A DNA stretch of 53,753 nt, counting the filler, from Jimgerdemannia flammicorona (lineage: Eukaryota): NCBI GenBank assembly GCA_003990765.1. It is 3 parts of 3 records of this genome, joined end to end, with 100 filler letters (N's around TTAATTAATTAA, not from the genome) between each part and the next. Parts side by side here need not be neighbours in the genome. Positions count along the whole stretch, not along the records: positions 17,955 to 35,806 come from RBNJ01002384.1; 2 more parts are not named here. One strand, given 5' to 3'. Shown here in pieces: positions 17,958-48,239 of the stretch. The first letter of the stretch is position 1, and each line of letters opens with the position of its first letter. The position numbers and the translations under genes are program-made. Below the pieces are notes generated by a model. That model was not told where the DNA came from. It did no database searches and worked only from the letters and a program-made list of their open reading frames with translations.

Positions 17958-20900
17958 TTTTTTTTTTTTTTAAAAGTCACTTGAACTCCTTTATTCCACT
18001 AGTCTATATTAATTAAACTACACATTTATCTTACTAACTACCTATTCCACACTATAAGTATGAAATAAACCTAACAGATCCTATCAACCCACCCCAATTT
18101 TCCACTGCACCCCACTCTCACCTAGTACCAAATAACCCTGACTCCCCAATACAATGTCTTGTACCTTCTTTACTGCCCCCAACTCCTGCTGCCTCCCCTG
18201 GTACTACCAACCCTGTACTACCTCTCTCATAAGCCAGCACCATCACTCCACCAGGTCCCCAATTCCCACCCAACATTCACCTTCAAAGACCCATCACCAG
18301 TATGCTGCCATTAAGACCCACACACCCAAGATCTGCCCAACACCTCCCCAAATGTCCCCAACCTCTCCCACCAGTCTCCTCTGGGTAACTACACTGACAG
18401 AATCTCCTGGCCTCCTTCTATCAGAACCCCAATATTCCTCCAACATCTGCCAATAATTCTCTACTCCTGGGTAGGCCTCTATGATATACTCCAGGGTCTG
18501 AACTACTTCTCTAGAGATTTTGAAACACCATTCACAATCTCTGCATCCATTATCCACTATCTATCCCATCTGATAGTTCAATATTACATTACTTCTCAGA
18601 AACTGCCACCAAACTACTCAATATCTAGGAGGTACTACCTTATTCAAAGTAGCCACCCATCTCCAAATTCAACCCCATTCCCACATCTTGCCAATGTCAG
18701 CTGTCTGCCATCCTACTGGCCACTGCTCAAGAGGGCCTGATCTGGTCCATTCCATAGCCTCCACCAGAGAATAGTCCTTCAGCTCCTTCCCTCTTACCCT
18801 GAGTAGTCTAAGTTGCTACCATCACTGCTTGGGGTCAGCCCTCTCCCCTATTGCCTCTATCTCCAGCCATGTTAGTCCTATTATAAGCCAGGTCTCAACA
18901 ATGTTCCACCAGAACCCTTTGAACTGTATCCTCCCACCAATCCAACTTGAAGTAGCCCTCACAAATCCTTCCTTTCCACACTCTGGAGGCAGAATCTGAT
19001 CTCCCAATTGTCTATTGCCAATCTGCCCCAGCTTTCTTCCTCTAACTCTACTAATCGGTGACCCCACCAGCTCCTAAGTGCCTTCAACCTTTGCCTAAAG
19101 TCTACCAACCCCAAACCTCTATCAGTAATCAGTAGCACCAATACTTCTCATCCAATCTGTGGCTGTCTACTCCTCCAGAGCCATCCTTCAATAGTCTTTT
19201 TGAGCTGCTGCACTACCTACCTATGGAAATCTAAGTGGTAACCCAGATACCACAACTTCAGCAGCCAGTACACATTCAGGACTACCACTCTCCCCACCAG
19301 AGAGAAGTTTCGACCAGCCCAGCCTGTCAGCATACCTTCCCATTTCTGTACCATTGAACTCCACTACTCTCTTGGCAAAACCATCCCAAACACTGAAAAC
19401 CATATCTCTAAGTACCATACTGCCTCTCCTGTAGGCACTACTCAGCCAAACCCTGCTATCCCTAAGCCTGTACCAATCTCTAAGGTTTCATACTTTCCCT
19501 AATTCAACTTTGCACCTACCAACTCCTCATACTGTTCTATTCCTTCTCTTAAAATGTCCACATCTGCCACACTGCCTAGCCCCACCACCATGTCATCTGT
19601 AAAGGCTCCTAGCTTCCAAATGACCTCACTCATTCGCAATTCATTCAGCTGTCCTCTTAGCCAGGCCAATACCAGTTCCAGCAAGAGAATGTAAAGAAGT
19701 GGAGAAAGAGGATCATCTTGCAGAACCCCTCTTCCTAAGGCAAACTCTGGACTACTCCAGCCATTCATCAGCACTGCCCCTCAACAGCCTCGCATCAGTC
19801 CCATCATTCTTCCAACTTCTCCAAGATCAAACCCTACTTTCAGGAGTATCACCTCTAGATAATGTCACTGCACCCTATTATATGCCTTTTCCTGATCTAA
19901 GAAAACTATCCTCCCATTGACCTGCTGACTTCTACAGCCTTCTAAGATATTTTGCACCCAGACAGTACTGTCTCTGATCTGCTGACCCTTTACAAAGCCC
20001 CTCTACTCCTCCTCTATCAGTCTTCCAATCCACTGCTGCAATCTTCCTGCCAGGATTTTGGAGACTAGCTTCCTATCCACATTCAACTGCATGATTGGCC
20101 ACCGGTTATACCACTCCCTCCTATCACCTTTCTTCTCATACAGCAGAGACACCAGTCCTAAGCTTCCATTTCCAATCCACCATCCTTCTTCCAGCACATA
20201 ATTAACTATTTCAACAAGCCAAGCTCCAAATTCCACCTGAAACTCCTTCCAAAACTCCCAAAGGAGTCCATTCTCATCTGGTGATAAACCACCAGGTACT
20301 TTCTGCAGAACCTCCAACACCTTCTCCAAAGATACTCTGTCTAATACTAAAGCCCCTATCTCTGGCAGTGGCACTACTGGCCAGTCACATACAAGAGATA
20401 TCTCAGCAACATCCTCTACCCCAGTACCTCCTCTCCCATCATCATCACTCCAGAGGGTCCACCATTGTCCAGAAACCTCCTCCAACATATCCATGACACT
20501 GGTAACCTCAACACCATCTTCTTGTAATACTGAAGATCAGCTGTGTTGAACTTTTCTTACCTTTAAGATACCAGATAAGTATTTCATCAGTTGCTCACCC
20601 TCTTCTAGTCACCTAGCCCTCAGGCATGCCAGGAGCCCATCTATAACTCTATCCTCAGCCTCCCTCAAAGCTAACTATAAGTCAACTACCTCTCTAGCAA
20701 GCTGATGCTTCTTCTCTACTACTAGTGAACCATCCTCCAATACCTTCAGTTATCACTACAATCCTCTTTTGACTCCTCTTTCCTTGTCCTTTTGCTCCTT
20801 TCCCACCACCTCTCCAGTGTCTTGCCAATATGCACCTACAAGGTGTTTAAACTTATTCTACCAATCAGCAATAGACAGACCACCAGCCACCCATTGCTCA

Positions 20901-21616
20901 ACTTCCTGCCTGGCCAAGTATACAAATTGCTCCTATTCCACCGGGCACTGAAGTAAGGCTACATTAAGGTGCTAGCACCCACCTCTTCCATGAATAGCCT
21001 GGATCTTCTACACACCTCAACTCCCCAATAGTCTAACCATGGGCACCACTATACCCCAACTGTGTCAAAAACATTACCCCAATATTTAGCTACCAGTATC
21101 CAATCAATCCACATTCCAACCATCCCATTGTCTATCAAATATTACCTAGTAAAGGGTCTTGACTCATCTCCTACCCTCAATTATACACCATCCACCAATC
21201 CCATGCCCTTTTCCACCTGAAGCCACTGAGACAGCCCTAGAGAAACTGTTACACTAGCTCCACCATCAGACCAATCCAGCACACAGTTGCTTATCATATT
21301 GAAATCATTCCCCAGAATGTCTAACCCTAGAGCTACCCAATTCCCCCAAGCCAGCCACTCCTCCACCCATTGCTTTCACTCTCTGCCAACTGCTGGCAGA
21401 TACACAGAGCCCACCAAGAGTCTATCTCCTTGTCCTCTCTTCAGCCTTTCCCATACCAGATGATCACCAAATCTTTCCACATCAACTATCTCCCTCTTTC
21501 CAACCCCAACAAGAATACCAACTTGCTTACTCCAGCCAGTATCTCCAAACTATTCCTTACTCCATGACTCATAGTCCTCCTTGCCATAGGTCCAAATATT
21601 CTGAAGAAATACCACA
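17958..21616 (-). mobile_element. L1/Tx1-like LINE copy 1 (decayed ORF2: APE, RT, zinc finger)
   Basis: Poly(T) at 17958-17971. GVLQDDPLSPLL, AFTDD, RWPIMQLNVDRK and ILGNDFN motifs. Cut inside the endonuclease by the next poly(T). Confidence 0.9.
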
Positions 21617-24600
21617 TTTTTTTTTTTTTTTTTTTTTTATAGTCACTTGGACTCCTTTATTACCCAGTAGTCTAATACAACAATAATCCTATCCAACAGC
21701 TACTATATATCCAAGGTACAAAGCAGGGCCTATCAGCCCACACCTTCTCTCTACTACACCACTCTGTCATCTAGCACTAGGTAATTATAACTCCTCTGCA
21801 CAATGTCCTGTACCTTTCTCATGGCTCCTAACTGGTGCCTCTTCTCCTGAAACCACCACCCTTGCACCACTTCCAGAAGTAACCATCTCTACTGCTCCAT
21901 CAATTCACCAATTCCCATCCAGAGAATACCCATCACCAGTGCACTGCCATCAGGACCCAGATGCTAAGAATATGACCCAAGCCCCCCCCACACATCTCTG
22001 ATCTCTCCCACTAGTCTCCATTTGATCACTGGCCCAGAGGTGCCCCCTGGTTGCCCACCTTTATGACCCCAATATCCATCCAATACCTGCCAATATCCTT
22101 CAACCCCTGGACATGCCACTAATATATGTTCTAGTGTCTGCACCATACCACCATCTACCTCACAACATCATTCACACTCTCTGATACCTTCTGCATCCAT
22201 CTATTTTGTCCTGTACCCCAACATTACATTTCTCCTCAAGAATCTCCACTATACTATTCAGAACTTAGGTGGAACTATCTTGAGCAAGGTATCCCCCCAT
22301 TGCCATATCTGACCCCACTCTCAATCTTCACCAAACCCAGCCTTCTGTCAACCTACTGGCCATCTCTCCAGTGGACCTGTTCTGATCCATTCCATTGCAC
22401 CAGACAGAGAGTATTCTGGCAACTGGTGGCCACTAATATGAAGGTCTCCTAGGTGTCACCATTTCTGCTCTGGGTCTTCCTCATCACCTGGCTCTGAGCT
22501 AGTAAGCCCCATTGCCAACCAGACCTCTACAATACCCTACCAGAACCCCTTATACCACAATCTGCTGACTCTATCCACCTGAAGCAGCCCCCATATATCC
22601 TTCTTAGCCTCACCCCAGGGACAGAACCTGACCTCCCAATTGTCCATGGCCAGTCTGCCCCAACCATTGATACCTAATTCTACAAATCAACACCCCCACC
22701 ATCCTCAAAGCACCTTTAACTACCACCAAAAGTCCACCAACCCCAAACCACCATCCAATGTCCACACTACTACTGTCTCCTAACTAATCTGTGGTCACCT
22801 TCCTTGCCATAGCCATCCTTCCACCACCTTCTTCAAGTGCTTTATCACCCAATCTGGGAAGTCCAAGGGGTACCCAAGATACTACAGCTTAGGCAACCAG
22901 TATACATTCAGTACTACAACTCTTCCAACTAAGAAGAAGTCCCTTCCTGACCATCCTGTCAGAGCACTCACCCACTTCTATATCATACCACACCACCACT
23001 CCTTTGGCAACACCATTCCCTAAACTGAAAACCAGATACCTAGATATTGGACTGCCTCTCTTATACCAACTATTCATTCAAACTGTCTATTTTCTCCAAG
23101 CCCAGTCCTAAGTTCCATGGTCTCACACTTGCCTCAATTCAGTTTCACTCCTGCCAGTCTCTCATATTGTCCAACCCCTTCTTGCAGACTTTCAATATCC
23201 TCCATACAGCCCAACCCAATCACCATATCATCTGCAAAGGCCCTCAACTTCTAGACCACCTCTTCTATCTACAATCTCATCAGCCTCCCCTTCAGCCACA
23301 CCAACAAAGGCTCCAAGGATAAGATATAGAGCAGGGATGAGAGCAGATCCCTCTGTGGTACACCTCTCCCCAAGGTAAACTCTGGGCCACACCACCCATT
23401 CATCAGTACAGCTGCTCAACATCCTCATATCAGACCTATCAAGCTTCTAGCCTCCACCATACTGAACCCTACTTTCTGTAGTACTGCCTCCAAGTAGTTC
23501 TACCTTACTCTATCATATGCCTTTTCTTAATCTAGAAAGACCATCCGCCCATCTATTTGTTGACTTCTGCAGTCTTCCAGAACATTTGGCACCTAGGCTG
23601 TACTATCCCGAATCTGCCTCCCCTTAATAAAACCTCACTGGTCTTCACCCACTAATTGGCCCATCCACCACTGCATTCTTTCCACCAAAATTTTGGACAC
23701 CAACTTCCTATCTACATTCAGTAACATGATCAGCTGCCAGTTTATAGATATGTCTGTCTCCCTTCTCTTTATATAATAAGGAGACCAACCCTAAGGAGCT
23801 ATTACTGATCCAACAACCTTCTCTCAAAACAAAGTTCACCATCTCAACTAGCTATTCACCAAACTCAGCTCAGAATTCCCTCCAGAACTCCGAAGGCAGG
23901 CCATCCTCCCCAGGTGATGAGCCAGTCTGTACATTCCTCAATACCTCCAATACCTCCTTAAGGACCACTGTGCCCATTACTGTTCTACCCATCTCAGGCA
24001 CCACTACTACCAGCCAGCTGTCAACCAAGTTGTCACCATTCCTCTGTAGGACCTCACTCTCTGCTTACCCACCCTCATCCTGCTACAAAGTATGCTACTG
24101 GCCAGATATCTCCTCAAGTATACCAGTAATGTCAGTAACCTCAATCCCATCCTCCCACAAGACTGATGCTCAGCTGTACTGCACTCTCCTGGCTTTCAAG
24201 ATTCCTGATAAATATTTAGTGGGCTGCTCTCTTTCCTCCAAGCAACTTTCCCACAATCTCGCCAGTAGACTATCTATCACTCTATCTTCAGCTGCCCTCA
24301 AATCTAACTTCAGCTCAGCCACCTCTTTGGTCAGCTGGCAGCATCACTCTCCTGATAATTTTACTCCTTCCATTAGCCTCAGCCACTATTGGAGACCCCG
24401 CTCTACTCTCCTCTCTCTATCTCTCTGCTCTCTCCTAGCCACCTCACCAATATCATGCCAGTAAGCACCTGCCAAATGTTTAAATTTATCCCACCACTGC
24501 CCTATCAGCTGTTCACTGTTCTTCCACCACAATACATCCTGCCTTGCAATTATCACAAACTGTTCCCACCCTGCCTGCCTTTTGAGTAGAGCCACATTAA

Positions 24601-25821
24601 GTCTCCAGCAACCTCCACCTCTACCTATTGCCTGAAATCTCCCTTGCACCTTGACTCCCCAGTGATCTGACCAAAGATACCACTATACTGCTACTGAATC
24701 CAGTATATTACCCCAACATTCTACAACCAGAATCCAATCAATTCTTGTTTCAACCAAGTCCTCACCAACTGAATGCCATCTAGTAAAGGGCCCTGGTCTC
24801 TCCCTCTGATGTTGCCATACCCCATCAACTAAACCCATATCCTGCTCAACCTGAAGCCATCACAAGAGTCCAGCTGATACTGCTACATCCACTCCACCAT
24901 CAGATCTATCTAGTGTCATATCATGCACTATATTGAAATTCTCCCCCAAAATGTCCAGCCCAATCTCTTCTTAGCCTTCCCAAGCCAGCCAGCCCTCTAC
25001 CCATTGGTTTTGCTCTCTGCCAACTGCTAGTAAGTAAGCAGAGCCTACAGTAAGTCCATTGCCAGCTCCTTTTTTTAGTCTCCTCCAAACCAATCAATTA
25101 CCATAGACTGTAGTCTCCACCAAATCACCTTTTCCTAAACCAATCAAGATCCCCACCTGCTCATTCCACTCTGCACTGCCATATCATTCCTTACTCCATT
25201 CCATATAATCCTACTCACCATATTCTCAAATATCCTAAAGAAATACTACATCATACCTCCTGTTCTTTAGCCAATAAAATAGCCACCTCCACTTCACTCC
25301 ATCATGTAGACCATTCACATTTAGTGATGATATATGCAGATTGTTCACCATTATTGAAAAGAATATTTAAAGCTCCACCAGAATTGCCACTACCTTCTCA
25401 GCCTGACCATGGATGATTTCCTTTCATTTTTCACAGATAGCTCTCTAGATATGGGAACCATTTATACTACCACAGAAGATATCAACCCTCTCAGATGCTA
25501 CTCTCTAGATATCAGCCATCTGGGCCTCATCTACCTCATGTCCTTCATCATCCAGAAGTGCTGCCACAATTGTCATCACCAGTTTTGACCTCTGCAATAC
25601 AATATTGAGGAATTCTTCTCAAGCCTCCTGAGATCTATTAAACACATCCACTTCCTTGATGTCCTCCTCTATCAGTTCTTCGAGCACTGCCTGATACCAA
25701 TCATCTGCTGTAATCACCAGAGATCCAGGGGTGACAGGCCTTGGAGTCCTACTCAGCTCCTATAGCATATCTCTGTCTACTAATACATCAGAGACTACAT
25801 CTATCAGATCATCTTCCTCAG
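21617..25821 (-). mobile_element. L1/Tx1-like LINE copy 2 (ORF2 and 3' part of ORF1)
   Basis: Poly(T) at 21617-21638. ORF2 starts MVNNLHISSLNVNGL at 25351. Interrupted in ORF1 by the hAT element. Confidence 0.9.
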
Positions 25822-25849
25822 TAGTGCTCTGAACAAATGGAGTTGATCC

Positions 25850-26035
25850 AGATGAGATTCAATTCAGATTCGTCATATGATGGATTTGAATCAACTCGGA
25901 TTGGTCTCGTGATCTGATCCGGATCAATCTGGATTGATCCAGATTGATCCATCCAGATTGATCCATCCAGATGATCCATCCAGATTGATCCATCCAGATT
26001 GACCCATCTGGATTGATCCATCTGGATTGAAATCT
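25850..26035. repeat. hAT left subterminal repeat array
   Basis: Repeated GATCCATCCAGATT-like units. Confidence 0.85.
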
Positions 26036-28030
26036 TTGGTGACATCACCCTTTCTTTTGTTCATTTCACTCTTGTATTTTTTTTTCTGCCACACTTTGAT
26101 AACATCACCCTTTCCTTTGTTCCCTCTCTTTTCTTTGTTCTTTTTCTTTGTTCTTTCCTGCTGCATCATGAGCAAACAAAACAGCAGCCCTTAATTCATA
26201 CATTGGTTCAGTCTACTCATTTTTCACCCTGCAATGATCATCAAAAGAGGGAGTATTCGAGGTGGAAACATACTCTCTGCTGACAATGTTAGATTCTTTC
26301 TCATATAGACAGCACACAAGCTGCTCATCGAGAGCCAAAGGGGTGATGGTGGTGGCAGTGACGATGGCAATGGTGGGGATGAGGGAGAATTTCAGCAACA
26401 ACTTATGGCAGCCCTTTGGACCTCGGAATTCACAGACCTCACAGCTATGTATGCGGCAGCCTTTTTGGAGCAGCCAATAGTATATGTAGGTTGCTCACTC
26501 GGCCGCCACTTGTTTACTTGTGTTTATTTAAACTTTCCCAGTATGACCCAATTTACCTCATACTTTTCTTAGGGTCAACAGCTCTACAGCGAGATCTGCC
26601 AATTTTATTTGCAACATTTGGTCAAGATGAAGAAAGGCTGATAGATGTTGCGGGGCATGTCTTTGGTGGCTGAGCTGTTGAGTCAATGCATTGTATGGTG
26701 GAGGTCTCAAAAGGAATAGAAGCAAGCCTTCATGAGTAATTCTTGTGCAACTTGTGCAACTTGTCAGCATGCAACTTGTCAGTATGCAGCTCACTCACTC
26801 ATGCTCTTTTTCTGAAATACCCATCTCTGTGTTTTATTTAATTTCATTTTTACATGGTCTCCCCCTAAAAAACACCCACACCCACATACAACTCACATAC
26901 AATCCATCCACATGCAACCCACCTGCACACAACCTGCCCACATACAACCTACCTGCAACTCGCCCACACACAACCCACCCACATGCAATCTGTCTGCATA
27001 CTTATCTTGGTCCCTCAGATCAGGGCTCAGTTCTATTGGAAAGGAGAGTTCAAAGTTACCCAAGTTCAACCACATCCAGCATCTGATCAAATAGAGAAAT
27101 TTGAGGGCAAGATGTTCAGCATGAGCAGTACCAGCATTATTATCAAGGCTTGGGGGTCTACATTTGAATCAGAGCCAATCGTACTTGACCAAGGGGTCCA
27201 TTGGCCAGCAGGAGTAACCAAAGATGAAGAGAGCCATATCTTTATTAACGAACACAGAGAGGTGGTTGCAATGGTGGTAAGGAACCTCTACGGCGAAGAG
27301 CTTTATTGCCACATCAACGAGATTTGCAAGAATTGTGTCAAATACTGGGTGGCAGGAAAGAGGGGGTAAAAAAAGCAAGGAGGGGGGGTTTGGATGGGAA
27401 TTGGATATACTGTAACACTGGCGAAGGGTTGGTTCCGGAGTTCTGAAATCCCCCACACTCGTCTCCCTTTTTTTTTAACCCCTTCTCAGATAAATCACAC
27501 TCTTTGCCAACATACTCTTTTTTGATACAATTCCAGAGATGCACAAGATTCTGTACCCCTACCAGAACTTTAGAAGTACTGTTGAAGAGCAAACTGCATG
27601 TGAGCATGACATGGTCTGTGCAGTGATGGCGGCTATGATCTGGGGTTCTTTGAGCAGATTGGTAGAGCATATGGCAGACCAGCTTGGTGGTGATCTTAGT
27701 ATGGCTGTACATACATTCTTAGCATAATTTAGCATGCCATATGAGGTGAGGAGCTCCGCTTTTTTGGAGTGCTGCAGCCCGGGGGGTTTCTGTGGCCTGG
27801 GGGGTTTCTGCCCCCCTGAATGCAAAATTGACTGACTGGTTGCCATTCGTTTTGGCAGGTTTCCAAGCTGGGGCTCCCGGGGCTGGACCAAGGGCAGGCA
27901 TCCACCAGCACAGCCTGGCAGTATGAGGTTCTGGGCCAAGGATTCACCAACCATATGCTTGCATCACATCAGGATATGTTGGGCACAACCTTTCTCTGCC
28001 CACACACACAGACAACAATGTTACTCTGGT

Positions 28031-30059
28031 TGTAAGAGGGTTGCTTTTTAGGGTAACCATTATGTAGTTCTGGAAAGGTTTTCTGGATATTCTGGATGTT
28101 CTGGAAGACCGTTTTCTTATGGTTAAGATCAATTTCGTATGGAGTACGTCCTCTACACTTATTGATTTCAAGATCGGGTTGACGTCTCAACTAAAGTCCT
28201 TTTTTGGACTAGTTCTGGATATTCAGGATTTTCTGTATTTCAGGAAGTTCAAGAAACTAAGACCAACTTAGTTAAATTGGCATATCGCTGCAGACAATAC
28301 CCAATTAGGAAATTTTGTGATGGAGTTAGGAGTAGGACCTAACAGGGAGCGGATTTACTTAAGAGTGGTTTGTGGGTTATGGAATAGGTTTATTTGCTAT
28401 TCATGATATTGCTATACTAGGAGTATTTGTGTGAAGGGGTATCATGGGGAAGTATTCAGGAATGTTCTTGTGTGTTCAAGTCTGAGATTCTGAGGTCTGG
28501 GGGAGGGGGTATTTATACTAGTGAGGGGCTATCTGGACTATGCTAGATATGGATGTAGCACTAAGTGCCTTGCTGAGTCGGAATGCAGTCACGTAGTACA
28601 AGTGTGATCTGGCATGTCAAGAGATCGTCTGACTGCTGTATCAGTTCACAGTCATGTCATACAATGCTAATCTAACTATACTATGACTGCTAGGCTATTT
28701 ATGGGTTTAGGTGCTATCTGGGTAGTCTTCAATGACATCACCATCGATTGCATTATCTCTGATGAAGTAGTTGTCTAGGAAGAGTGGTTCATGGATTACT
28801 TCTCCTTGTTCGCTGAGATAGTAATACATTGGGACTTCGTCTCTGTCTCACAGGATAGCATCGTCTGTCTCGTAGGCTGGATAAGGTGTTGGTGGACAAA
28901 GGATGGGTGTATTGTCTTCGCTTTTGTCAGATTCACTATCTGCGTACCTTCTATAGGTTACAGCACTATGAGTTGCAGGATTGTAGTAAGCTGGCAGCTG
29001 TGATTCATGTCGCTCATACTCAGGTGGTGGAGTGGTTGGTTCAATCTCGAGGGTTGTCTGGAGGTACAGGTTGTGTTCTCCAGTCTCTTCATTGTAGTTG
29101 AAGTAATCAGGGGTGAACACAGGTTGGTATTCGTGCCAGTGGTCATTGTCCCAATAAGTCTCGTATGCAGTTATGAACTGTTGTAAGTTCATCGGCAAGG
29201 TTGGCGGAGTGATCAAGGTTGGCAGAGATTCTTGGCTAGAGGTCATGTCAGCATCAGAGGGATCATTGTCTTCTGCTTCGTCTTCATCGAAGTGGATTAT
29301 GTCATAGACATCCTTCATGGCATATCCAACTTGAGGCATTTGCAGGATGTGATCATTGGGGTGTGGAAAGGTTCTGTCTGTGGTTTCGACATACTCGAGG
29401 TACTTGTGGTTGAGTTCTTGTATCATCTCGTCGATTTGGCCATAGGACAGAGTAGCAACCATTTCGCTGGTAGTAACTCGGAGGCGGGGAATAAAGGTGC
29501 TATACTCATAAAAGAGTTCTCGATGTTTGCGGGCGATGAGCTTCTGGTGTTGAGACATCTGGGTGATGTCTGTATTGTTGTGGTGTTTGACCATATCTTC
29601 CAGGAGGTGGCTGATCTGATAGTAGCTTGAGATTTGTCCAATTCGGTGGGCCTCGCTAAGCATGTTCAGGGCATTCCATCAGGCTTCCATGAAGTAGAGG
29701 GGTGCCAGGCTATGGATATTCATGAGGGGCAGAGGGGGTGTAGCTCAGTTGACAATGGAATTCCAAATGTCAGCATGGATGTGGTTGTAGATCTCAGTGG
29801 TCATGTTTGTGTGTTTAGAAGTTGTGGTTGTTGTTTGTTTTGATTCTCTGATTCGACGCATCTTGGTGCTTGGTATATATGCATTTGGTCCTGATTGGTA
29901 AGATTCCATTTGTATAAATCTTGTGTTCCGTGACTTCGTATTGACTCAGCTTTGTGCCTGTGACTTCGGTTTGACTCAGCTTCGTGATCAAGCAGGTGAT
30001 TTTCAGATTTGTTCAGAGGTCGCATGTAATTTCGGTGGCTTGGAGGTTGTGCACTTATA
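28031..30059 (-). mobile_element. Ty3-type solo LTR (2029 bp) containing an ORF
   Basis: TGTAAG...CTTATA (decayed CTTACA). 5-bp TSD CTGGT at 28026-28030 and 30060-30064. Minus-strand TATAAATA near 28510 and AATAAA near 28390. Confidence 0.88.
28848..29804 (-). pseudogene. LTR-embedded accessory ORF, unknown function
   Basis: A 271-aa open frame extends upstream to ATG 29804 through two TGA codons that plausibly derive from CGA. Acidic, Pro/Tyr-rich C-terminus. Confidence 0.75.
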
Positions 30060-30539
30060 CTGGTAATATTTTACATCCCAGAAAGGAAGGGCCCAATCTG
30101 GGAGGATAGCGGCAGAGTCTGGTATGACCTCACCTATGGTTTCAGGGTCCCGTTTGCGGCCAACACAGTCATCCTATTCCAACCACATGACCACCACAGC
30201 ACTGTCGCCTTCGAGGAGAGCTCAGACATGACAGTCGTTGCACTCACAATGGATGACAGGCTCATCAAGGCCTGGGACCAGTGGGTGGAGCAGTTTTTGT
30301 GAGGGTTAGGCAATCTTTCGTGAGGGTTAGACAGCCATTTTGTGCAGGTTGGGTAGTCTTACATGGTGGGGTTGGGCCGGGCGCCTCTTATGTAGCACTA
30401 GTTTAGCTATTATGCAGGGCCCTACTGGCCGGGGTGCCTGTGAGACCTGAACTGGCAACTTCAACTACTGGAAATGCCCTCTGACTGCCAGAAGCACCCT
30501 CCAACCACCAGAAGCACTCTCCACCCCGGACTCCTAGGT

Positions 30540-31030
30540 GGCTTAGGGCTGCCCCTATGCTGCTGGTAGAGGGCTGCAAATTTTGCACACTCCCTCCACC
30601 TGCCCCGCCCATCCTGGACACTTGTGGCTTGGGGCAGCCCCTTACTGCCGGCAGAGGGCTGCAAATTTTTGTGCACTCCCTCTGCTGACCTCATACCTGC
30701 CAACTGACCCTGCCCACTGACCCGGGCACTGACAGCTTGGGGCTGCCCCTTGCTGCTGGTGAAGGGCCGCAAATTTTGCATGCTCCCTCCACTTACCCCC
30801 CCAATCTGGACACTTGTGGCTTGGGGCTGCCCCTTGCTGCCGGTGGAGGGCTGCAAATTTTGTGTGCTCCCTCCACTGACCCGCCCACTGCCTACTGCCC
30901 ACTGACCCACTAACTCACCCACCGACCCACCCACCAACCTGGGCACTAGCAGCTTAGGGCTGCCCCTTGCTGCTGGCTGAGGGCTGCAAATATTGCATAC
31001 TCCCTCCACTGCCGCCGCCAACTCTGCCCC
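30540..31030. repeat. GC-rich minisatellite inside the hAT
   Basis: About five units with core GGGCTGCCCCTTGCTGCYGGTGGAGGGCTGCAAATTTTG...CTCCCTCCAC. Confidence 0.85.
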
Positions 31031-31144
31031 ACTTTGGCCACAAACTCCAGGCCAAGTCCTCAGGTTTTTTTTTCCTTTTTATTATTTTGAAAGGTATTAA
31101 ATATTCCACAAGGCCAACCAACTTATCTATGGACCCACTGAATT

Positions 31145-33690
31145 TTAGTGGCCCGAGCCCCACCAAGACTTCAGACACATACATGCCTAGATTGTCTCAG
31201 CATTCAGTACACACCTCTTTGAGGCAACGAGGTCCACCCCACCTGAGAACACCTGCTCGATGGGAGTGCTGGAGGCAGGAATTGCCAGGTAGTCCCAAGC
31301 TATACCACACAGGCTGGGGAAGTCCATTTGATACAGCTGCATGCCCTGGTGGGTAGAGTGGTGGTTAGATTGGTGGGTTCAATTGGCCCAACACCCGCCT
31401 GACAACCCACCTTCCACCAGTTGAGCACCTCCATGCCCTCCAGCAGGACCATGCAGTTGCTGGCAAGATAAATGGTAAGTTCATCTATTGATGGCAGCTC
31501 TTCCACTGATGGCTCCCTCTTCCTCTTTCTGCTAAAGTAAATGTGGGACAGAAGGGATCTCTCAGCATATTCATCCAGACTTTGGCCGGAACCTTGCAGC
31601 AGTGTATAGTTTTTCCGGTACACTTCAATTACAGCCTGCTTGGTTCTCTCAATGAAGTACTGCTCCCAGCCCTGATCTTTATAGTATTGTAGCTTTAAGC
31701 ATGGGTCCAGTACTGTTCGAAGAAAAGGAGAGTGAGTTTTTGTGGGGTTTCCTCTGTTTTGGAAGGGGCAATGGCCATATGCTGACATCAACATACCTGT
31801 ACTGATTGAGTATACAGCGGTATCTGTTTGGGAGTAGTATTTTCTAAGCTTGCTTAGAGCAACCTCCACAGCATCTCTCTGATCCAGGCTTAACCGTAAA
31901 TCACCGCAACCCTCCAGCCTCTCCTCGAGCTTATCCTCTAGCCAGTCAATCAGAAGGTTGTATATCGATATTGCAGAGCTTATTGTCGGGGTCGTTTGTT
32001 TGACTATATCCTTCATACAATCGTCGAAACACTGGCAGTTATATGTGGTGAGGTGTTGTATTGTGCGGAGGCAGACAAAACGAGTATAGAGCCAGGGCAA
32101 CCACTACTTACTTCCAAAACTCTGACAACATTCCTAAGTATGTCCCACTTACTTTCACCTAGAGCCTTGGCCCATATTTCCTTGTCGGCAGCCATCATTG
32201 AATCTATTGGCTTTTTTTTTTTTTTTTTTTTTAAAAATAAATCTTCCATTATCCGAAACAGTTGCTTCAGCCGACTGAAGAAAAAAAGGATGCATATCAC
32301 AGCAAACTCCAGCGCATGCTGGATTATTGCAAATGATGAGTTCTAATGTGTACAGATGTCCAATATAAGCTCTTTCAGGGCTAAACTGATTGCCCTACAC
32401 TGTGCAGCGATTTTGTCTCATCATTGTGGGGATGATTGGACTGACACAATCAGTTTGCTTAGCTTGGAAATTATACTCAGGGCCCCTCCTCTCTCAGATG
32501 TTTTGTCTATGTGCGTAAGATAGTTCTGAACAGCGAGGTTCAGTACATGGGCCTGGCATCGCACATGGCAGCTTTCTGCACTGAAGGCCATGTTTTCCTG
32601 TTTGAGGCTGGCCGCTAAAACTTGGAAAAATATTGAGTTATTTGTGGCATTGTCTATCATAATGGCCAAAATCTGTACTTGAAATATTTGGTTGACAAAT
32701 TTATGTGAAAATAAGTAACCAATAAAAATCTGGTTTGGTTTAGGACCTCTCTCAAAATACTGACCTGATGGCAAGCCCCCCTTTTTTACCTTAGTGGTGA
32801 TCCCAAGCTCCCGGATACAACTAATAAAAGTATCTGTGATATTGTCTCCAGAATGAGGGCCAGCAAGTTTGACGAAGTCAAGGGTGAGAGATTTAAGCTA
32901 CCAATCGAGGTCAATCTAATGACCAGTAATGCCCAGAAATGAAATTGCATTAGGGGATGTCCATGTGTCGATCATAAATGAAATTTTGCCTGCCGAATTC
33001 TGCTTATTGAATGTGAGGTTAAATTGGTGAGCTCTTTTATATAATTCAGCTTGCAAAGGTCATGGTGCTGCCCTTATTTTACCTGAAGTGTCTGGTGAAG
33101 ATTGTTATACTCCTTCCTATAGGCCTCCAGGACATCTTTGCGAATAGTATTGGCACTTGGCAAATATATATCATGCTTGAGGAGGCCAAAGATGCTATGC
33201 AATTGATCACTCTCGATAGTTGTGAATGGCTGGTCTGTGCACACAATCTAGTGAATGAGCTGATTTCGAAATTCTGCTAAAGAGTATGGCTAAATATTTT
33301 TGATTAAATGGCATTATTGGTACAGAAATGGTCAAGCAATCAGATAAACATACCCACTACAGCTTGGATGTTGATTTTATTTGTCTCTGTGTTCTTTTTG
33401 ATTTTGTCAGAGTGTTTGTCTTTTATGTGTTGATTCATGTTCGAAGTTGTACCCCCAAGCATTTTGAACTTCTGGCTGGTGCAGTTCATGGGGGTGGATG
33501 AAACAATATCATGTATGTGTCAAAACAAAGTGTCAATAGGTGTATCTTAATTTTTTACCTGCATGGAAGGTGTGGAACTATCAGGGATATTTGACTTGAA
33601 GCATCATCGGTACTATGAACTGTTGAAGACTGATCTGTTGACATGTGTGTTTGCATGTATGTGTGTTGTGTTGTGGACACATCTGGCATA
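31145..33690 (-). pseudogene. Multi-exon hAT transposase (BED finger, DDE, dimerisation domain)
   Basis: TTSNMNQHIKDKH, DTWTSPN, IDNATNN, RCQAHVLNLAVQ, VLDP, LNWWK, DYLAIPASSTPIEQVFS. Several GT-AG introns and a few stops. Confidence 0.92.
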
Positions 33691-33699
33691 TGAGTCATG

Positions 33700-34105
33700 T
33701 GGAGGATTTGGATTGGAGGATTCAGTTGAAGGATTCGGATGAGGATTCGGATTGAAGGATTCAAATTGGAGGATTCAAATTGGAGGATTCAAATTGGAGG
33801 ATTCGAATTGGAGGATTTGAATTGAGTGATTCAGATTGAGTGATTCAAATTGAGTGATTCGAATTGAGTGATTTGGATTGGGGTGGTTCAGATGGGTGAT
33901 TCAGATGGATGATTCAGATGGGGCGATTCAGATTGAGTGATTTGGATTGAGTGATTCGGATTGGAGTGGTTCAGATAGGTGATTCGGATGGGGCAATTTG
34001 GATGGGGTGATTCAGATTAAATCTGAGTTGATTCGGATGGCTTCAGATTTGAGATTCGAATCAAACCATCATGTGATGAATTGAATCTGGATTTGATTTG
34101 AATTG
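33700..34105. repeat. hAT right subterminal repeat array
   Basis: Tandem GATTCRRATTGRRK-like units of 12-14 bp. Confidence 0.9.
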
Positions 34106-34122
34106 ACTTGTTTGGAGCACTA

Positions 34123-34614
34123 TTCCTCAGTATTCTTCTCCAGCCTTACTACCTCATCAGCCTCTGGACATTCCCAATGAACATTTGCCACTCCTGCTAT
34201 GTAAACATCCTCTAACTGGGTCTCTGATACTACCTCAACAATATCCTCAAAGCCCCCTTTGCCCATCTCCTCCCTATCAGCCCACTTCTCCTTCACTGGC
34301 ACATGAGCAGAGGTCTCCACACCCCTCAGCTATGAAAAAGACACCTCAGCTATCTCCACCTCCTCCATCTGACTCTTGGCCATTTCTACATACACTTCCT
34401 CCTCCATTTGTGCATCTTGGAGGACTGTCTGCAGTTGTTCCCAGTTTGCCTTCTGCTATCTCTTCCTCCTCTCTTTGGTCAGAATCCAAATCCAGTCCTT
34501 AGCAAACTCCTCCCATCTCCTCTTCCTAAGTTCCTTTGCAGTCTCTCTCTCCTCTAGGGCAAGTAACAATTCCTCCTCCTCCTGCTCAGATCCTTTCCTT
34601 CTCTATACCTTACA
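34123..34614 (-). mobile_element. Continuation of LINE copy 2 ORF1
   Basis: Resumes after the TSD, with the same purine-rich minus-strand composition. Cut by the next poly(T). Confidence 0.75.
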
Positions 34615-35792
34615 TTTTTTTTTTTTTTTATAGTCACTTGGACTCCTTTATTATCCAATAGCCTAATATAACAATGAATCTATCTAATAGCTATTATATA
34701 TCCAAGGCACAGAGCAGGGCCTATCAGCCCACACCTTCTCTCTACCATACCCCTCCATCATCTAGTACTAGGAGACTGTGACCCCTCTGCACAATGTCCT
34801 GTACCTTTCTCATGGCTTCTAACTGATGCCTCTTTCCCTGAAACCACTACCCTTGCACCACTTCCAAAAGCAACCATCTCCACTGCTCCACCCAATTCAC
34901 CAATTCTCATCTAGGGATCCTTCTCGAACACCCATCTCCAGTTCACCACCATCAGGACCCAGATATCAAGAATACAGCCCAAGCCTCCCCACATATCTCC
35001 AATCTCTCCAACCAGTTGCCATTTGATCACTGGCCCAGTGGCACCCTCTGGTCACCCACCTTCATGACCCCAATATCTCTCCAATACCTGCCAATACCCT
35101 TCAACTCCTGGACATGCCACCAATACATGTTCTGGTGTCTGCACCATACTACCATCTATCTTATAACACCACTCACACTCTCTTACACCTTCTGCATCCA
35201 TCCATCCTGTCTGGTACCCCAACATTACATTCCTCCTCAAGAATCTTCACCATACTACTCAGAACTTAGATAGAACTACCTTGAGCAAGATGTCCCCCCA
35301 TCACCATATCTGGCCTCACTCCCAATCTTCACCAAACCCAGCCTTCTGCCAACCACCTCTCCAGTGGGCCTGTTCTGATCTATTCCATTGCTCCAGACAG
35401 AGAGTATTCTGCCAACTGGTGGCCACTAATATAAAGATCTCCTAGACACTACCATTTCTGCTCCAGGTCTTCCTTAGTATCTGGCTCTGAACCCATAAGT
35501 CCCATAGCCAGCCAGGCCTCTACAATATCCCACCAGAACCCCTTATACTGTAATCTACTGACTCTACTCACCCAAAGTAGACCCCACATATCCTTTCTAG
35601 CCTCACCATAGGGGCAGAACCTAACCTCCCAATTGTCCATGGCCAGTCTGCCCTAACCATCAATATCTAATTCCACCAATCAACATCTCCACCTGCCTCA
35701 AAGCACCTTCAACTATCTTTAAAAGTCCACCAACCCCAAACTACCATTCAATATCTACATCACTACTGTCTCTCAACTAATCTGTGGTCACC
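34615..35792 (-). mobile_element. L1/Tx1-like LINE copy 3, 3' end
   Basis: Poly(T) at 34615-34629, then close similarity to 21639-22800. Confidence 0.9.
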
Positions 35793-35806
35793 TTTTTTTT
35801 TTTTTT

Positions 35807-35906
35807 NNNNNNNNNNNNNNNNNNNNNNNNNNNNNNNNNNNNNNNNNNNNTTAATTAATTAANNNNNNNNNNNNNNNNNNNNNNNNNNNNNNNNNNNNNN
35901 NNNNNN
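35807..35906. other. Assembly gap with artificial linker
   Basis: 100 bp of N with a central TTAATTAATTAA. Confidence 0.95.
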
Positions 35907-36113
35907 GATAGGCTTTATTAAGGGCTTTCAAATGACACCAAGATCATCAAATTTGGATGATTATTCATCAAATTATTGATGTAAACATTTAATTGTCTAA
36001 TTTGGAAATCAAAACAATGGTTGATTCGAATCCGATTCGAATCCATCCGGATGGGATTCAATCCGAATCAATCCGAATCCAATCCGGATTAAATTGACTC
36101 GTTAGGAGCACTA
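35907..36113. mobile_element. End of a young hAT-family non-autonomous element
   Basis: CpG-retaining ATCCGAATC repeats ending in GGAGCACTA. 35915-36020 resembles 53225-53335. A second decayed end, GAGTACTA, lies at 36250. Confidence 0.75.
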
Positions 36114-38149: not shown

Positions 38150-41100
38150 TCTCTTGTATAGGTTTGTGATACTTCTTGAGTCTGTTCCTATGTACTATGG
38201 TAGGCAGTATAGTCCCTGAGATTTTTCTAAGCCAGAAGGTAGTTCCCTTGATATCTTGCACATAGAAGGGTTCTTCCTATTTGGGCTCCAGTTTTTGCAA
38301 CCATGAGGCTTCTACCATATTTTGATACAGTAGGATCTTTTCTCTGATTTGGATGGGTTCTAGGGTCTTGTAATTCTTTTCTGCATTCTTCCTTATCAGT
38401 ACTTGTAACTTGATAATGTAATCTTCAGCCTTCTTTCTGATTTGGTATAGTCTCTGGATTTCTGCATCAATCCATCTCCAAGTTAGGTCTAGATTTGTGA
38501 CTGAGGTTCTATCAGAATCTTCTTCTCTGAAGAGCAGTTCTCTTGGGGTAAAGTGTGTGCTCTGTGACTGTATGTCTCATAGGACAGAGAGGGTAGTTGG
38601 GAGGTAGTTATCCCAATTCTCATATGTCTCTGAGATTTTTGCCAGGATGTTCTTGAGGGTCTTATTGGTTCTCTCTATCTGTCTATTTCCTTAAGGGTGG
38701 TATGCAGTGGTCTTGATGTGCTGGATCTTGTATTTCTAATATATTATCTCATGGAATCCATTGACAAATTCTGTACCATAGTCTGTTGTGATTTGCTTTA
38801 GTGTCTTATAGCAGCAAATGATTTCTCAGTACAGGAAGTCAGCTATAGAGAGGGTATTGGCTTCTTATAATGCTCCTGCTTCTATCTATTTGGTAAAGAG
38901 GTCTACAATAACTATAATATAGTAGTTTCCTAATAGTATTACTGATAGTGGCCCAATGATATCTATTGCAATATGGTAGAAGGGGATAGGCTCAATTCTT
39001 GATAATCCAGATACCTAGTCATGCTGATCTTGTTTCTGTTTTTGGCACTTGTCACACTCTTTGACAAATTGGTACAGGTCTTCTTCCATTTTGGGCTACC
39101 ACATGGTTCTTCTTGCCTTATCATATATGTTGGTTCCTTTTAAGTATCCTTGCTCATGTACTTTCTTCATTATTTGATACTTCTTGTGTTTGAGTATTAC
39201 TAGCTTTCCTTCTTTTCTAAGTATAGTATTGTCTAGTTCAAACTGTTTCCAAGTCCAGTTGATGATAGTAATTGTCCAGAGTTTGAGGTGGTTGGGCATC
39301 TTCTACTGCCCAAGATAGCTAATTAATCCATAGTATAACTCCTTATTCATGTTGAATAGTCTTGATGGGGGTATTTTGGGGTGTCCTTGAGAGTGCATCA
39401 GTATTGGTATTGGTTCTTCCTGAGTGGTGCATAACAGTACAGTCATACTCTTGCAGCCTGTAGATCTATCTGACATATATTTCTTTGGGGTTCAGAGTAT
39501 AGAATAGCCAGGTAAGAGCAGAATTATCTGTTTGAATGGTGAAGTATTTCCCAGCTAGGTAGTAGTAGAACTTGTCTACTGCCCAAACTACTGCTAAGCA
39601 TTTAAGCTTACATAACTCATAGTTTTGTTCTGCTCCATAGATACCTCAGCTTGCATAGGAGATGACATATTTATATCCATCTTTCTTCTGAGCTAGAACT
39701 GTTCCAAGTCCTATAACACTTGCATTTGTCTGCAGGATGAATTCTAGGTTCCAATCTGGTCTTCTGAGAATAGATACTTAGGTCAATCTGGTCTTAAGTT
39801 CATTGAAGGTTTCTTGGTATTCCTTGGTCCATTTGAATTTGGTTTCCTTCTTCAGTAGCTCATAGATAGGTGCTATAATGTTGGAGTATCCTTTGATGAA
39901 TCTTCTGCAGTAGCTGGCCAGTCCAAGGAAGGCATGGACTTCTGTAGTTCTTCTGGGTCTCAGATAGGCTACAATAGCCTCAATCTTTATGGAGTCTGTG
40001 TAGATTTCTGTCTGATTGATGAGGTGTTCTAGATAGGTGATTTTCTGAGCTGCAAACTTGCATTTCTTAGGCTTGATATAGAGGCCATACTCCTTGAGCT
40101 TCTTGAGGGCTAGCTGTATGTGATTGACATGTTCTTGTGTAGTATTGCTGAAGATGATCATATCATCAACATAGATAAAGAGCTATTTTCCAATCTTGTT
40201 GCTGAAGACTCTGTTCATCATTTGCTAAAAACTTACTAGGGCATTGCATATTCCAAATGACATTTGCAGGTAGATATAGGTAGTGTCAGGTGTGACAAAG
40301 GCTGATTTCTTACTGGTATCTTGAGTGAGACTAATCTGATGGAAGCCTGAGAACAGATCCAAGGTAGTGTAGTATTTGGCTTCACTTCCAAGGGTGGTAA
40401 GGATTTCTTGAATATTTGACAAGGGCTGCCTATCCTTCTTGATGATTGCATTGAGCTTTCTGTAGTCAATACAGAGTCTTGGTGCAAACTCTCTAGACTT
40501 GCTTCCTTTCTTTGAGGCAAGGACAATGGGTGAAGCCCAGAGACTGATAGCTTGCTTGATGATTCCAGCTTCTTTCATTTCCTTGAGTTCTGCTCACAGC
40601 CATTCTCTGTAGACAGGTGGTATGAGTCTGGCTTTCTGGTAGATGGGCTTAGTATCACCAGTATCAACTTTGTAGTAGTACTTGGGTTCTTGATTGTGGA
40701 TATCCCTGAAGTCTGTAGTAAGTATTCCTTCGTTCTGATGCAGGATCTTGAGAAGTTATTCTTCCAGGGGAAAGTTTTCTCCAATAGTATATGTATACTT
40801 GTTCTGGTCCTTGTCTTTCTTGTGCTCAAGTTCAGTAATCTTGATGTGGCATAGGCTCCTCTTCTAGTAGATCTAAAGCCTTGTTCTCCTCTCTTGGTCT
40901 TGATGAATTTGATGGCTTTAGTGATCTTGGGTTTCTTGATTTTGTAGATCAGCATCTGGCCAATCCTGTCATACTTCTTGACTTCAAATGGAGTGGTGGG
41001 GTTGTGATTCCTAACTATAAGAAAGATCTTGTCAGTGTAATTAGGGTCAATTACTCCTTCTTCAACTGAGATTTCACTTTTGGCTAGACTGCTCCTGGTC

Positions 41101-43430
41101 TTGATAATTCTGGTATGGTTCTCTGGCAGCTTGACTCCAATTTCAGTACCAAGTAGGGTAGTGGTCTGGGGTTCAAGGGTAGCATCTTGAATACTGGTAA
41201 GGTCCATTTCTATGGCTCCTTCAGTCTTGTATTCTGGGATCTTGGCTTTGGGGTGAAACTTCTTAACCTTGAGGGTTGTGTCTGATTCTTGTTCCTCCTC
41301 ATCATCACTATCAGCCTGACACTCTGGAGGTTGATCATCTTCTTCAGCTTTTCTTTTTGCTTCAGCTGCTTTTTGCTCATACTTCTGTTGGTGGATTTTC
41401 CTGACTTTACTGATACAGGACCAGTAGTCATTTAGGTGTTCAGAGCAGTACATCCTAGTACCATGGGGGCATCTTCCTTGAGGGGTATAGCCATTAATGA
41501 TCTTGTTGTACCACTGCTCATCTGTGAGCTTGGGTGTCTTGTTCTTGTTCTTATTCACTAAGTGCATAAAGACTTCTGTGTCCTCTTCATCTCCTTCCTC
41601 CATACTGATAGGACTCCTTTGTGGACATTAATAGAGACTTGTACCTTTCTTCCTCTATAGTTGATCTGCATCTTCTGGGCATTGAGGTCAATGATGGCCT
41701 TGGTCTTGTGAAGCCATTGATTGCCGATGAGGATGTTATAGTTGGTGGTACTTGTAACAATCACATCTATTGGGATGGTAGTTTCTCCTATCTTGATGGG
41801 GATTTCTTGGATTTTGTCAAAGGAGGTAGCTCATGTACTATCTGCTGTAACATAGACCATCTTGGTGGACTCTTCAATATCCCAACCTAGGTGGTCAATT
41901 GTCTTCTTGCTCATAAGGCATCCTTCAGCACCAGTATCAATGATGGCATTAAAGATACAGTCTTCAATTTGACATAGGATATAGGCTGATGTCTTGCACT
42001 GGTCTTCAGATTCTTTGTCTAAGTCTTTGGATTCTTCTTGTATATTGTGAGCCTCTACAATCTTGTACTCTTGATTCTTGGTGGTAGTTGCAAGTCCTAC
42101 TCTCAACTGTTGTCTGAAGACAGGGACTTCAGCTAGTTGTTCAAAAGTAGCATTGACCTTCTGTTCCTTGAGGTCCTTATAGATATTATACTGGTGGATC
42201 TTGGTCTTGTACAGCTTCTGTTCCTTCTTGCTTTTGCTTTCTTCTGAGACTAGAGTAGTGACTTCTATGATTTGGTGGGCTGCTTTATCTAACTCCATGT
42301 CTTGATCAATCTCCTTAGGTTGAGTCTTACTTTGAATAGTGACAGCTGGAGTCTTCTTTGGTCTTCCAACTGGCTTGCTGTTGCTCTTCTTATCATAGGG
42401 CTTGAACTGGGTTCTGGTATCTTCAGTAGCAGGGTAGAACTTGAGCTCCTCATAGTATTCTTCATTATCAGTGTCACCAATTTCCTCGATGACTACTGCA
42501 TTGGTTTGTTCTCTGGTTCTACTAGTATTGCTTGGTTGGGCCTTATATCTCATTTCAGTCATGCAATTCTTTACATAGTAGCCTTCTTCTCCATATCTGA
42601 AGTATGTAATATTGTATTCTTCTGTAGTAGCTACAAATCTCTGCACTGGTCTCCTGTTGATACTTTGGACTTCTCTAACAACATCACTAAGGTGTGTAGT
42701 CATCTTGGCAAACTACTTGGTGAGTTTCTCTACTGGGTCAGCTTTGGCTGTCTTGGGGGTAGGTGGGGATGGTTGTCTGTTTACAACTATAGCAGGTATA
42801 ATACTGATTGGCTTCAGTGACTCTATCTTGATGCCAGTTATTTTCTCTATTGAATGTTCAGCAGAGTGTCTGGCAGTCCAATATCTCTGTGCAAAGACCA
42901 CTTTCTAATCAAGGGTTAGTACAGCTGGAATAGACCAGATTGCTAGGGCAATTTTAGAGTGAACTCCTTTGAGGAAGGTTGAATCCACTATTTGTTCCTT
43001 GAGGGCATCATCATAGCCAGCCAAGACAATCTGGTGGCAGATTCAGGTATAGAATAAGTTAGGATCTTCACTAAGTCTCTGGCAGATAGTATTGAGTTGA
43101 TCTTTGAGAGCTTGCTTGATCTCTTCAGTATAATATATTGTTCTGAGGAAGGCCTTCATGTTGGCAAGTTTAGCTGTACTATTATCAGCAATAGTGGCTA
43201 TATTGAACTTATCTCTGGTAGGTCCTCTGAGACTAACTAGTAGAAGGGCCAAATGTATATCTACACCAAGGGCTCATATAGTGGTGAATTGTTCAAAGTC
43301 TTCAATGAAGATCAGGATTGACTCTTTAGTAGTATATCTATAGAATATGGGGGGATGCATTTCCATCTTATCTTGAATTTTTGCAGAGATGACTCTTGTA
43401 GTCAGAGTAGTTGTTGTAGGGGTTGTTCAT
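38150..43430 (-). pseudogene. Ty3 B gag-pol
   Basis: Decayed knuckle YFRYGEEGYYVKNC, AIIDTGA, SLWASPIVL, LDLFSGFHQI, YVDD near 40165, FLGLASY, DIIGPL, W*EEPFY. Confidence 0.92.
40862..41275 (-). pseudogene. dut: Trimeric dUTPase domain in Ty3 B pol
   Basis: AIEMDL, TRSSLA, GVIDPNYTD, DRIGQM, RGEQGFRST. Confidence 0.9.
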
Positions 43431-44486: not shown

Positions 44487-44549
44487 TTTTTTTTTTTTTT
44501 TTTTTTTATAGTCTCTTGGACTGCCCTTTATTACTGCCATCTATAATTC

Positions 44550-48227: not shown

Positions 48228-48239
48228 ATTGAAAGAATG

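Follow-up and report, generated by a model that had tools for sequence, protein, structure and literature searches.

The stretch of DNA analysed here, referred to as the window, comprises 53,753 nucleotides, filler included, in which three parts of the Jimgerdemannia flammicorona assembly GCA_003990765.1 are joined, and all positions are counted along it. Positions 25822-34122 hold a complete, autonomous-type hAT DNA transposon that is now dead. The element contains a minus-strand transposase gene and, convergent with it, a plus-strand passenger gene which probably encodes a divergent TET/JBP-like Fe(II)/2-oxoglutarate (2OG) dioxygenase. We infer the fold and family of this protein from a conserved metal-binding pattern, from its neighbours in the ESM Atlas and from its collinearity with published TET domains. 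An initial annotation, made by reading the sequence alone, had proposed this combination of transposon and enzyme.

The hAT element and its transposase

The element has a length of 8.3 kb and is bounded by 8-bp terminal inverted repeats (TIRs) and an 8-bp target-site duplication (TSD). Two identical TSD copies, TTCCTCAG, were read directly at 25814-25821 and 34123-34130. The left TIR (25822-25838, plus strand) starts with the perfect 8-bp repeat TAGTGCTC at 25822-25829, followed by an imperfect extension, and the right TIR (34106-34122, minus strand) ends with GAGCACTA at 34115-34122, the reverse complement of TAGTGCTC. Beyond the perfect 8 bp, the pairing extends imperfectly to about 17 bp in our own reading, with 13 of the 17 positions matching. 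Furthermore, one soil-metagenome contig represents a paralogous empty site in which position 25821 is fused to about 34131/34151 and a single TTCCTCAG is present. This contig is evidence from outside the window for both the element ends and the 8-bp TSD, and the complete hAT with TIRs and TSD described in the initial annotation is thereby confirmed. With an 8-bp TSD, short TIRs and a C-terminal dimerisation domain in the transposase, the element belongs to the hAT superfamily.

A repeat search detected subterminal arrays of 14-bp repeats on both sides of the element. The left array, with the unit ATCCAGATTGATCC, covers 25909-26037 (repeats at 25937-26030), and the right arrays cover 33700-34018. 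These repeats likely represent putative transposase binding sites. A separate block of direct repeats, with four or five copies of about 66-92 bp each, is located at 30520-31021, between the 3' ends of the passenger and transposase genes.

Three DNA runs from a single soil-metagenome study (X1-X3; word shares 0.15, 0.06 and 0.00) provided contigs that were mapped on positions 25700-34250. The hAT family is multi-copy, as 5782 contigs of run X1 with at least 80% identity covered 30 of 30 bins. The copies differ from each other mainly by transitions.

The transposase gene (31187-33698, minus strand) was identified by Pfam and a three-frame reading. The hAT dimerisation domain PF05699 was found at 31187-31378 on the minus strand with an E-value of 5.4e-6, and its score of 26.5 bits exceeds the cut-off of 21.4. 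This domain, the reading frames and the relatives of the passenger protein described below bear out the annotated pair of a minus-strand transposase and a convergent plus-strand gene. The translation also includes ..IDTWTS.. near 32967, ..RCQAHVLNL.. at 32535-32561 and ..LNWWK.., which we take to be hallmarks of hAT transposases. Since these blocks are scattered over several frames and interrupted by stops, such as those at 32916-32918 and 32898-32900, the transposase is decayed. A zf-BED domain (PF02892) at 33340-33519 was matched weakly, with an E-value of 0.057 and 13.9 bits, which is under the cut-off of 20.6. No Pfam or PDB match covered the RNase-H-like core, and the PDB sequence search with two transposase pieces returned 0 matches and 4 chance-level matches, the best with an E-value of 0.1. 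A scan of the metagenome contigs with a transposase piece yielded 38 pattern matches, of which none was confirmed.

The passenger gene and its relatives

The frames of the passenger gene on the plus strand can be read as three exons. Exon 1 (27031-27427) includes a possible ATG at 27112 and an in-frame TAA at 27367-27369, and exon 2 (27537-27745) includes an in-frame TAA at 27725-27727. Exon 3 is split by an insertion. Its first part (27859-28030) has a 1-bp frameshift near 27945-27948 and the H-T-D codons at 28005-28013, and its second part (30065-30302) carries the conserved distal His codon (30195-30197) and ends with the stop codon at 30300-30302. The HxD motif thus lies where it had been annotated, and the distal His falls within the interval of 30186-30197 that had been given for it. 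Candidate intron 1 (27428-27536) is of the GT...AG type with a pyrimidine tract, candidate intron 2 (27746-27858) has the form GTGAGG...CAG, and both join the frames without remainder. Counted from the ATG at 27112, the conceptual product has about 311 residues.

The TAA at 27367-27369 is regarded as a lesion and not as an exon end because the frame past it runs into a conserved-looking G-G-x-x-W-x-x-G block. By eye, this block is similar to PU-type domains that Kojima 2025 (Biology 14:1741, PMC12730594) lists in Table S1. An intron at 27370-27536, with the TAA as exon end, was rejected for this reason, and the GT...AG intron at 27428-27536 fits better.

The LTR-like insertion that splits exon 3 (28031-30059) has a length of 2029 bp, the ends TGTAAG...CTTATA and a 5-bp TSD, CTGGT, at 28026-28030 and 30060-30064. 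It falls exactly between HxD and the distal His. Deleting 28031-30064, which removes the insertion and one CTGGT, results in exactly the peptide that the initial annotation had reconstructed and which continues to the stop at 30300-30302. The closest relative of this peptide, P0001, reads straight across the join, and contigs in runs X1-X3 skip about 2041-2044 bp at the insertion and are joined in frame. The initial label of a solo long terminal repeat (LTR) is plausible for the insertion. It is favoured by the 5-bp TSD, the ends, the lack of an internal repeat pair and a contig depth about 10-fold above that of the hAT in the soil-metagenome contigs. No full-length element with a matching LTR was found in the window. 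The insertion also includes an open frame of 276 amino acids (aa) at 28848-29678 on the minus strand, which had no family match.

Altogether, the window copy is disabled at four sites, by the two TAA codons, by the frameshift and by the LTR-like insertion, and it is a pseudogene as initially stated. The frameshift near 27945-27948 is the loss of one base. At this position the two relatives P0001 and P0002 are unshifted, and the metagenome contigs have a loose end at 27947. No second copy of the gene was found in the window, and no inverted or direct repeat pair flanks it within the hAT.

Despite this decay, the passenger gene is real and uninterrupted copies of it exist elsewhere. When 1,835,955,588 representative proteins were searched exhaustively by phmmer with the C-terminal piece of 90 aa, eight matches had E ≤ 1e-3, and two of these are true relatives. 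P0001 has 136 aa and 81% identity (E 1.3e-38), and P0002 has 134 aa and 49-53% identity (E 1.1e-16). Both are uninterrupted over the insertion point and the window frameshift, and the open reading frame (ORF) of P0001 begins directly after the position matching candidate intron 2. They are singleton clusters on contigs of 823 bp and 1009 bp. The other six matches were dropped as noise, as all six belong to repeat proteins (DUF7507/DUF11, fucose lectin, WD40, FG-GAP, PKD and a single proline-rich repeat protein).

Further searches did not extend this family. A word-seeded protein search with the exon-1 piece gave nine candidates and no match. With the family alignment, a word-seeded search led from 371 candidates to P0001 and P0002 alone, and a longer one provided 6376 candidates, none of them with E ≤ 10. 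A scan of the metagenome contigs with the same alignment produced 104 pattern matches and 0 confirmed ones.

Probable assignment to the TET/JBP enzymes

The assignment of the passenger protein to the TET/JBP enzymes starts from its metal-binding residues. H-T-D and the distal His, the latter within D-x-H-[GS]-T, are kept in all three sequences at a distance of 52 residues, and the metal triad is therefore present. The initial annotation had named the conservation of these residues as a check of its reading, and in this respect the reading stood. The H-x-D ... H pattern is common to human TET2, NgTET of Naegleria, CcTET of Coprinopsis, CMD1 of Chlamydomonas and kinetoplastid JBP1. In JBP1, the spacing of the metal ligands is likewise about 50 residues.

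Matches in the ESM Atlas point in the same direction, but according to the tool's own warning they are to be taken as leads. By features, the top matches of P0001, at 0.95 and 0.93, were unnamed Basidiomycota clusters. Next, at 0.91, came the 'Tet-like 2OG-Fe(II) oxygenase' cluster, which carries PF20515 on 72% of its members and has 178 of 256 features in common with P0001, which is over the guide value of 170. Another cluster, with Tet_JBP on 11% of its members, was found at 0.88. The Atlas model of P0001, with a predicted local distance difference test (pLDDT) value of 0.69, was similar to ten clusters at template modelling (TM) scores of 0.54-0.63. Five of these consist mostly of 2OG-FeII_Oxy families, two do so partly (Tet_JBP 28%, 2OG-FeII_Oxy_3 46%), and another bears the name prolyl 4-hydroxylase (P4H).

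The conceptual protein was also compared with 17 TET domains (4 PU, 8 PE and 5 AG) from Table S1 of Kojima 2025. By eye, it is collinear with the PU and PE domains of this table along the whole domain. The N-terminal ..V.MVVRN.. resembles the PE block ..VVIRN.., ..GG.VWMGIGY.. resembles the PU block ..GG.MW.IGW.., and P.HTDN is present in two PU rows. For the block ..YG[FI]RV..AANT....QP.D.HGT.., a hand count showed 16 of 31 positions to be identical between P0001 and PE row 117. After ..D.HGT.., the ..GLSL.. block and the final ..RL are common with the domains of the table.

Several results weigh against the assignment. This comparison with Table S1 was made by eye, and the structural neighbours in the Atlas point to generic 2OG oxygenases no less than to TET-like enzymes. 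In the ESM Atlas, no usable match was obtained for the non-overlapping N-terminal 112 aa. With the Pfam threshold relaxed to E ≤ 10, no 2OG family, Tet_JBP (PF12851) and 2OG-FeII_Oxy_6 (PF20515) included, was matched by P0001, P0002, the window pieces A-D or the read-through N-terminal piece P0009. PHROGs and NCBIfam provided 0 families for four proteins each. Two AlphaFold2 models built from four-row alignments were unusable, with mean pLDDT values of 33.5 and 38.4. Regarding the gene itself, no RNA run containing the element was found among the listed sequencing runs, so that the introns remain candidates, and no other copy of the gene could be placed inside hAT ends. Another difficulty is the residue that binds the co-substrate. 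In TET2 and JBP1, the Arg contacting the 2OG C5-carboxylate is located about 10-16 residues after the distal His. At the expected site of the passenger protein, about 15 residues past the distal His, Thr or Ala is found in all three sequences, in agreement with the initial caveat that this Arg is not evident. The only conserved Arg lies 21 residues past the distal His, in ..D[DE]RL. Finally, the family profile had 0 matches at E ≤ 10 among all PDB sequences, despite the solved structures of CcTET, NgTET, TET2 and CMD1 (Kojima 2025, PMC12730594, section 3.4).

Both the silence of the profiles and the missing Arg have counterparts in this paper. Even for the PE type, the HHpred matches to CMD1 and NgTET have E-values no better than 1.4 and 19, and its recognition came through AlphaFold models (section 3.2.3), which explains the silent profile searches here. 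In addition, several of the PU and PE domains, namely rows 47, 114, 116 and 122, have no Arg at the same spot. Therefore, these two results weaken the TET/JBP assignment but do not overturn it. The TET/JBP-like reading of the initial annotation is thus upheld by the HxD...H pattern, the Atlas clusters and the by-eye collinearity, while the profile check it had suggested against Tet_JBP and other 2OG families failed, as did the structure models.

Two other explanations for the passenger protein start from the same findings, and both are rather improbable. One is that it is a host-captured Fe(II)/2OG oxygenase with a double-stranded beta-helix fold from another family, such as a prolyl-hydroxylase-like one, acting on a protein or small molecule and not on DNA. 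This would be in line with the lack of a Tet_JBP profile match and of the TET-type Arg, and with Atlas clusters of prolyl 4-hydroxylase, HIF prolyl dioxygenase, 2OG-FeII_Oxy_3 and 2OG-FeII_Oxy_5 at the same TM scores as the cluster containing Tet_JBP. However, no P4H or other 2OG family was matched in Pfam either, and the best named feature match is the Tet-like cluster with its 178 common features. Moreover, the PU and PE blocks recognised by eye reach beyond the HxD/H core, to the N-terminal ..VVRN.. and to ..GG..W..G... TET/JBP genes are also the only precedent found for dioxygenase genes inside fungal DNA transposons, as described by Kojima 2025 (PMC12730594).

The other explanation, to which we give a similarly low probability, is that the protein belongs to the TET/JBP assemblage without being a classical 2OG-dependent oxidase of 5-methylcytosine (5mC). 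It might use another co-substrate, introduce another DNA modification or serve as a non-catalytic DNA-binding accessory. The Thr or Ala at the expected Arg site would fit this. It would also fit that CMD1, an enzyme using vitamin C as the donor of a glyceryl group, is one of the solved structures nearest to the PU and PE types, and that other activities are considered possible (Kojima 2025, PMC12730594). On the other hand, the metal triad is kept and a conserved Arg is present 21 residues past the His. The absence of the Arg from rows 47, 114, 116 and 122 as well suggests that alignment slack or a relocated basic residue may be the cause. Should the Arg be truly absent, the enzyme might depend on another co-substrate or, like CMD1, leave a different mark on DNA.

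A further reading, which we consider very unlikely, denies the hAT a functional gene on the plus strand and takes the frames there as the remnant of another mobile element nested in it, or as an element-specific protein in which HxD...H occurs by chance. In its favour, the gene is broken four times in the window, where it has no second copy, and the metagenome scans (104 and 38 pattern matches) confirmed 0 further loci. Against it, two independent intact ORFs (81% and 49-53% identity) keep the same motif positions, no repeat pair flanks the gene inside the hAT and, as a weak hint, contig depth is similar over the gene and transposase parts in 30 of 30 bins.

Comparison with known systems and possible role

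A TET/JBP-like gene in a hAT element, as preferred here for the passenger gene, is a new example and not a new principle. Kojima 2025 (PMC12730594) describes TET/JBP genes in 11 lineages of DNA transposons. Among them are 20 TET-carrying families named hAT7, which have TSDs of 7 bp and come from six species of Puccinia, so that the arrangement has already been reported for hAT elements of rust fungi. This supersedes the statement of the initial annotation that no link between TET and hAT was known. In the literature searched, no paper other than this one was found that treats hAT together with TET/JBP.

The similarities to the TET-carrying hAT7 elements of Puccinia include a hAT DNA transposon with a TET/JBP-like gene beside the transposase and a host genome with methylation-linked C-to-T decay of repeats. 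They also include H-T-D-N around the first metal ligands, as in PU rows 9 and 56 of Table S1, and the glycine-rich ..GG..W..G.. block. Nevertheless, the label hAT7 was rejected for the element, because its TSD has 8 bp instead of 7 bp (section 3.1.2) and both its termini and its gene arrangement differ. The termini are TAGTGCTC here and CA[AG]CG... in two hAT7 consensus sequences. The gene is convergent with the transposase, whereas it is located upstream in the same orientation in hAT7-1_PCor, hAT7-2_PCor and hAT7-1_PHor. Further differences are a C-terminal half that looks closer to the PE type and a CpG loss that is weakest at TCG.

With the PE type, which is described from Agaricus, Laccaria, Gymnopus and Pezizales (Kojima 2025), the protein shares the domain length and the order of the blocks. 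The blocks ..V.[VM]V[IV]R[ND].. and ..YG[IF]RV..AANT....P.D.HGT.. and the final ..RL are found in both, and both are unseen by ordinary profile searches. In contrast, the hallmark of the PE type is HxE, whereas H-T-D is found here in all three sequences, and the metal-ligand loop is about four residues shorter. The protein fits neither type cleanly, with HxD as in PU and a C-terminal half that looks most like PE, and it may bridge the two. It could even represent a fourth, unsampled TET/JBP type that mixes PU features (HxD and the glycine-rich block) with a PE feature (the C-terminal block), does not have the canonical Arg, is almost absent from protein space (2 relatives in 1.84 billion) and was captured independently by a hAT with an 8-bp TSD, maybe in a non-rust fungus. 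We consider this unlikely.

Compared to the characterised TET/JBP enzymes, the protein has no detectable profile similarity, no Arg at the R-x-S position and no Cys-rich or DNA-binding extensions. Iyer and colleagues (2014, cited in Kojima 2025) are said to have associated TET/JBP genes with Kyakuja-Dileera-Zisupton and Plavaka elements in Basidiomycota and to have proposed a role in countering 5mC silencing. These elements likewise combine a DNA transposon with a TET/JBP gene, but they differ in the transposase superfamily and in the TET subtype, which is AG and close to CcTET.

The CpG content provides a possible context for such an enzyme. Within the hAT, the observed/expected (o/e) CpG ratio amounts to 0.24-0.34, compared with 0.02-0.08 for the older repeats around the element, and the heavy CpG loss noted initially is evident from values of 0.02-0.5 in all repeats of the window except one. 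Over the whole window, the depletion is strongest at ACG (o/e 0.11) and weakest at TCG (0.22). Kojima 2025 (PMC12730594) cites a TCG-focused hypermutation for Pucciniomycotina. Because TCG is the least affected context in the window, the host is possibly no rust fungus.

Intact copies of the element would express their own dioxygenase, which might oxidise 5mC, or another modified base related to it, in the DNA of the element itself. This oxidation could counter methylation-based silencing or slow the CpG-to-TpG decay that eroded nearly every repeat of the window. Such an anti-silencing role is suggested by analogy, following section 4.2 of Kojima 2025 and the work cited there, where it is likewise a proposal. 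DNA transposons with their own 5mC-oxidising enzyme would be a rare counter-measure of mobile elements to epigenetic silencing. The limit of this strategy is seen in the window copy, which lost the race, as it is CpG-depleted, broken by stops and a frameshift, and was then hit by a high-copy, retroelement-type LTR-like insertion.

According to Kojima 2025 (PMC12730594), such genes move between at least 11 transposon lineages, hAT included. The element adds to these a canonical hAT with an 8-bp TSD, a different gene arrangement and a protein too divergent for any profile library. This implies that the spread of TET/JBP genes among hosts and transposon lineages is under-counted, since such genes sit in masked repeats.

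Beside the hAT, the window includes further repeats and frames. A Copia-type reverse transcriptase (RVT_2, E 6.3e-75) at 3-1988 on the plus strand has a CpG o/e of 1.15 and looks young and unmutated among old elements. The target sequence of the hAT (18001-25821 and 34131-36000) and a similar stretch at 44001-50000 are strand-asymmetric, with a GC skew of -0.36 to -0.53, an AT skew near 0 and a CpG o/e of 0.02-0.08. An ORF of 177 aa at 20003-20536 on the minus strand had no Pfam match. Two more minus-strand frames, at 40575-41627 and 41831-42712, belong to an LTR retroelement in which a dUTPase frame (PF00692, E 9e-21) comes directly after a gag/aspartyl-protease frame, and which is thus a retrotransposon with a captured gene of nucleotide metabolism.

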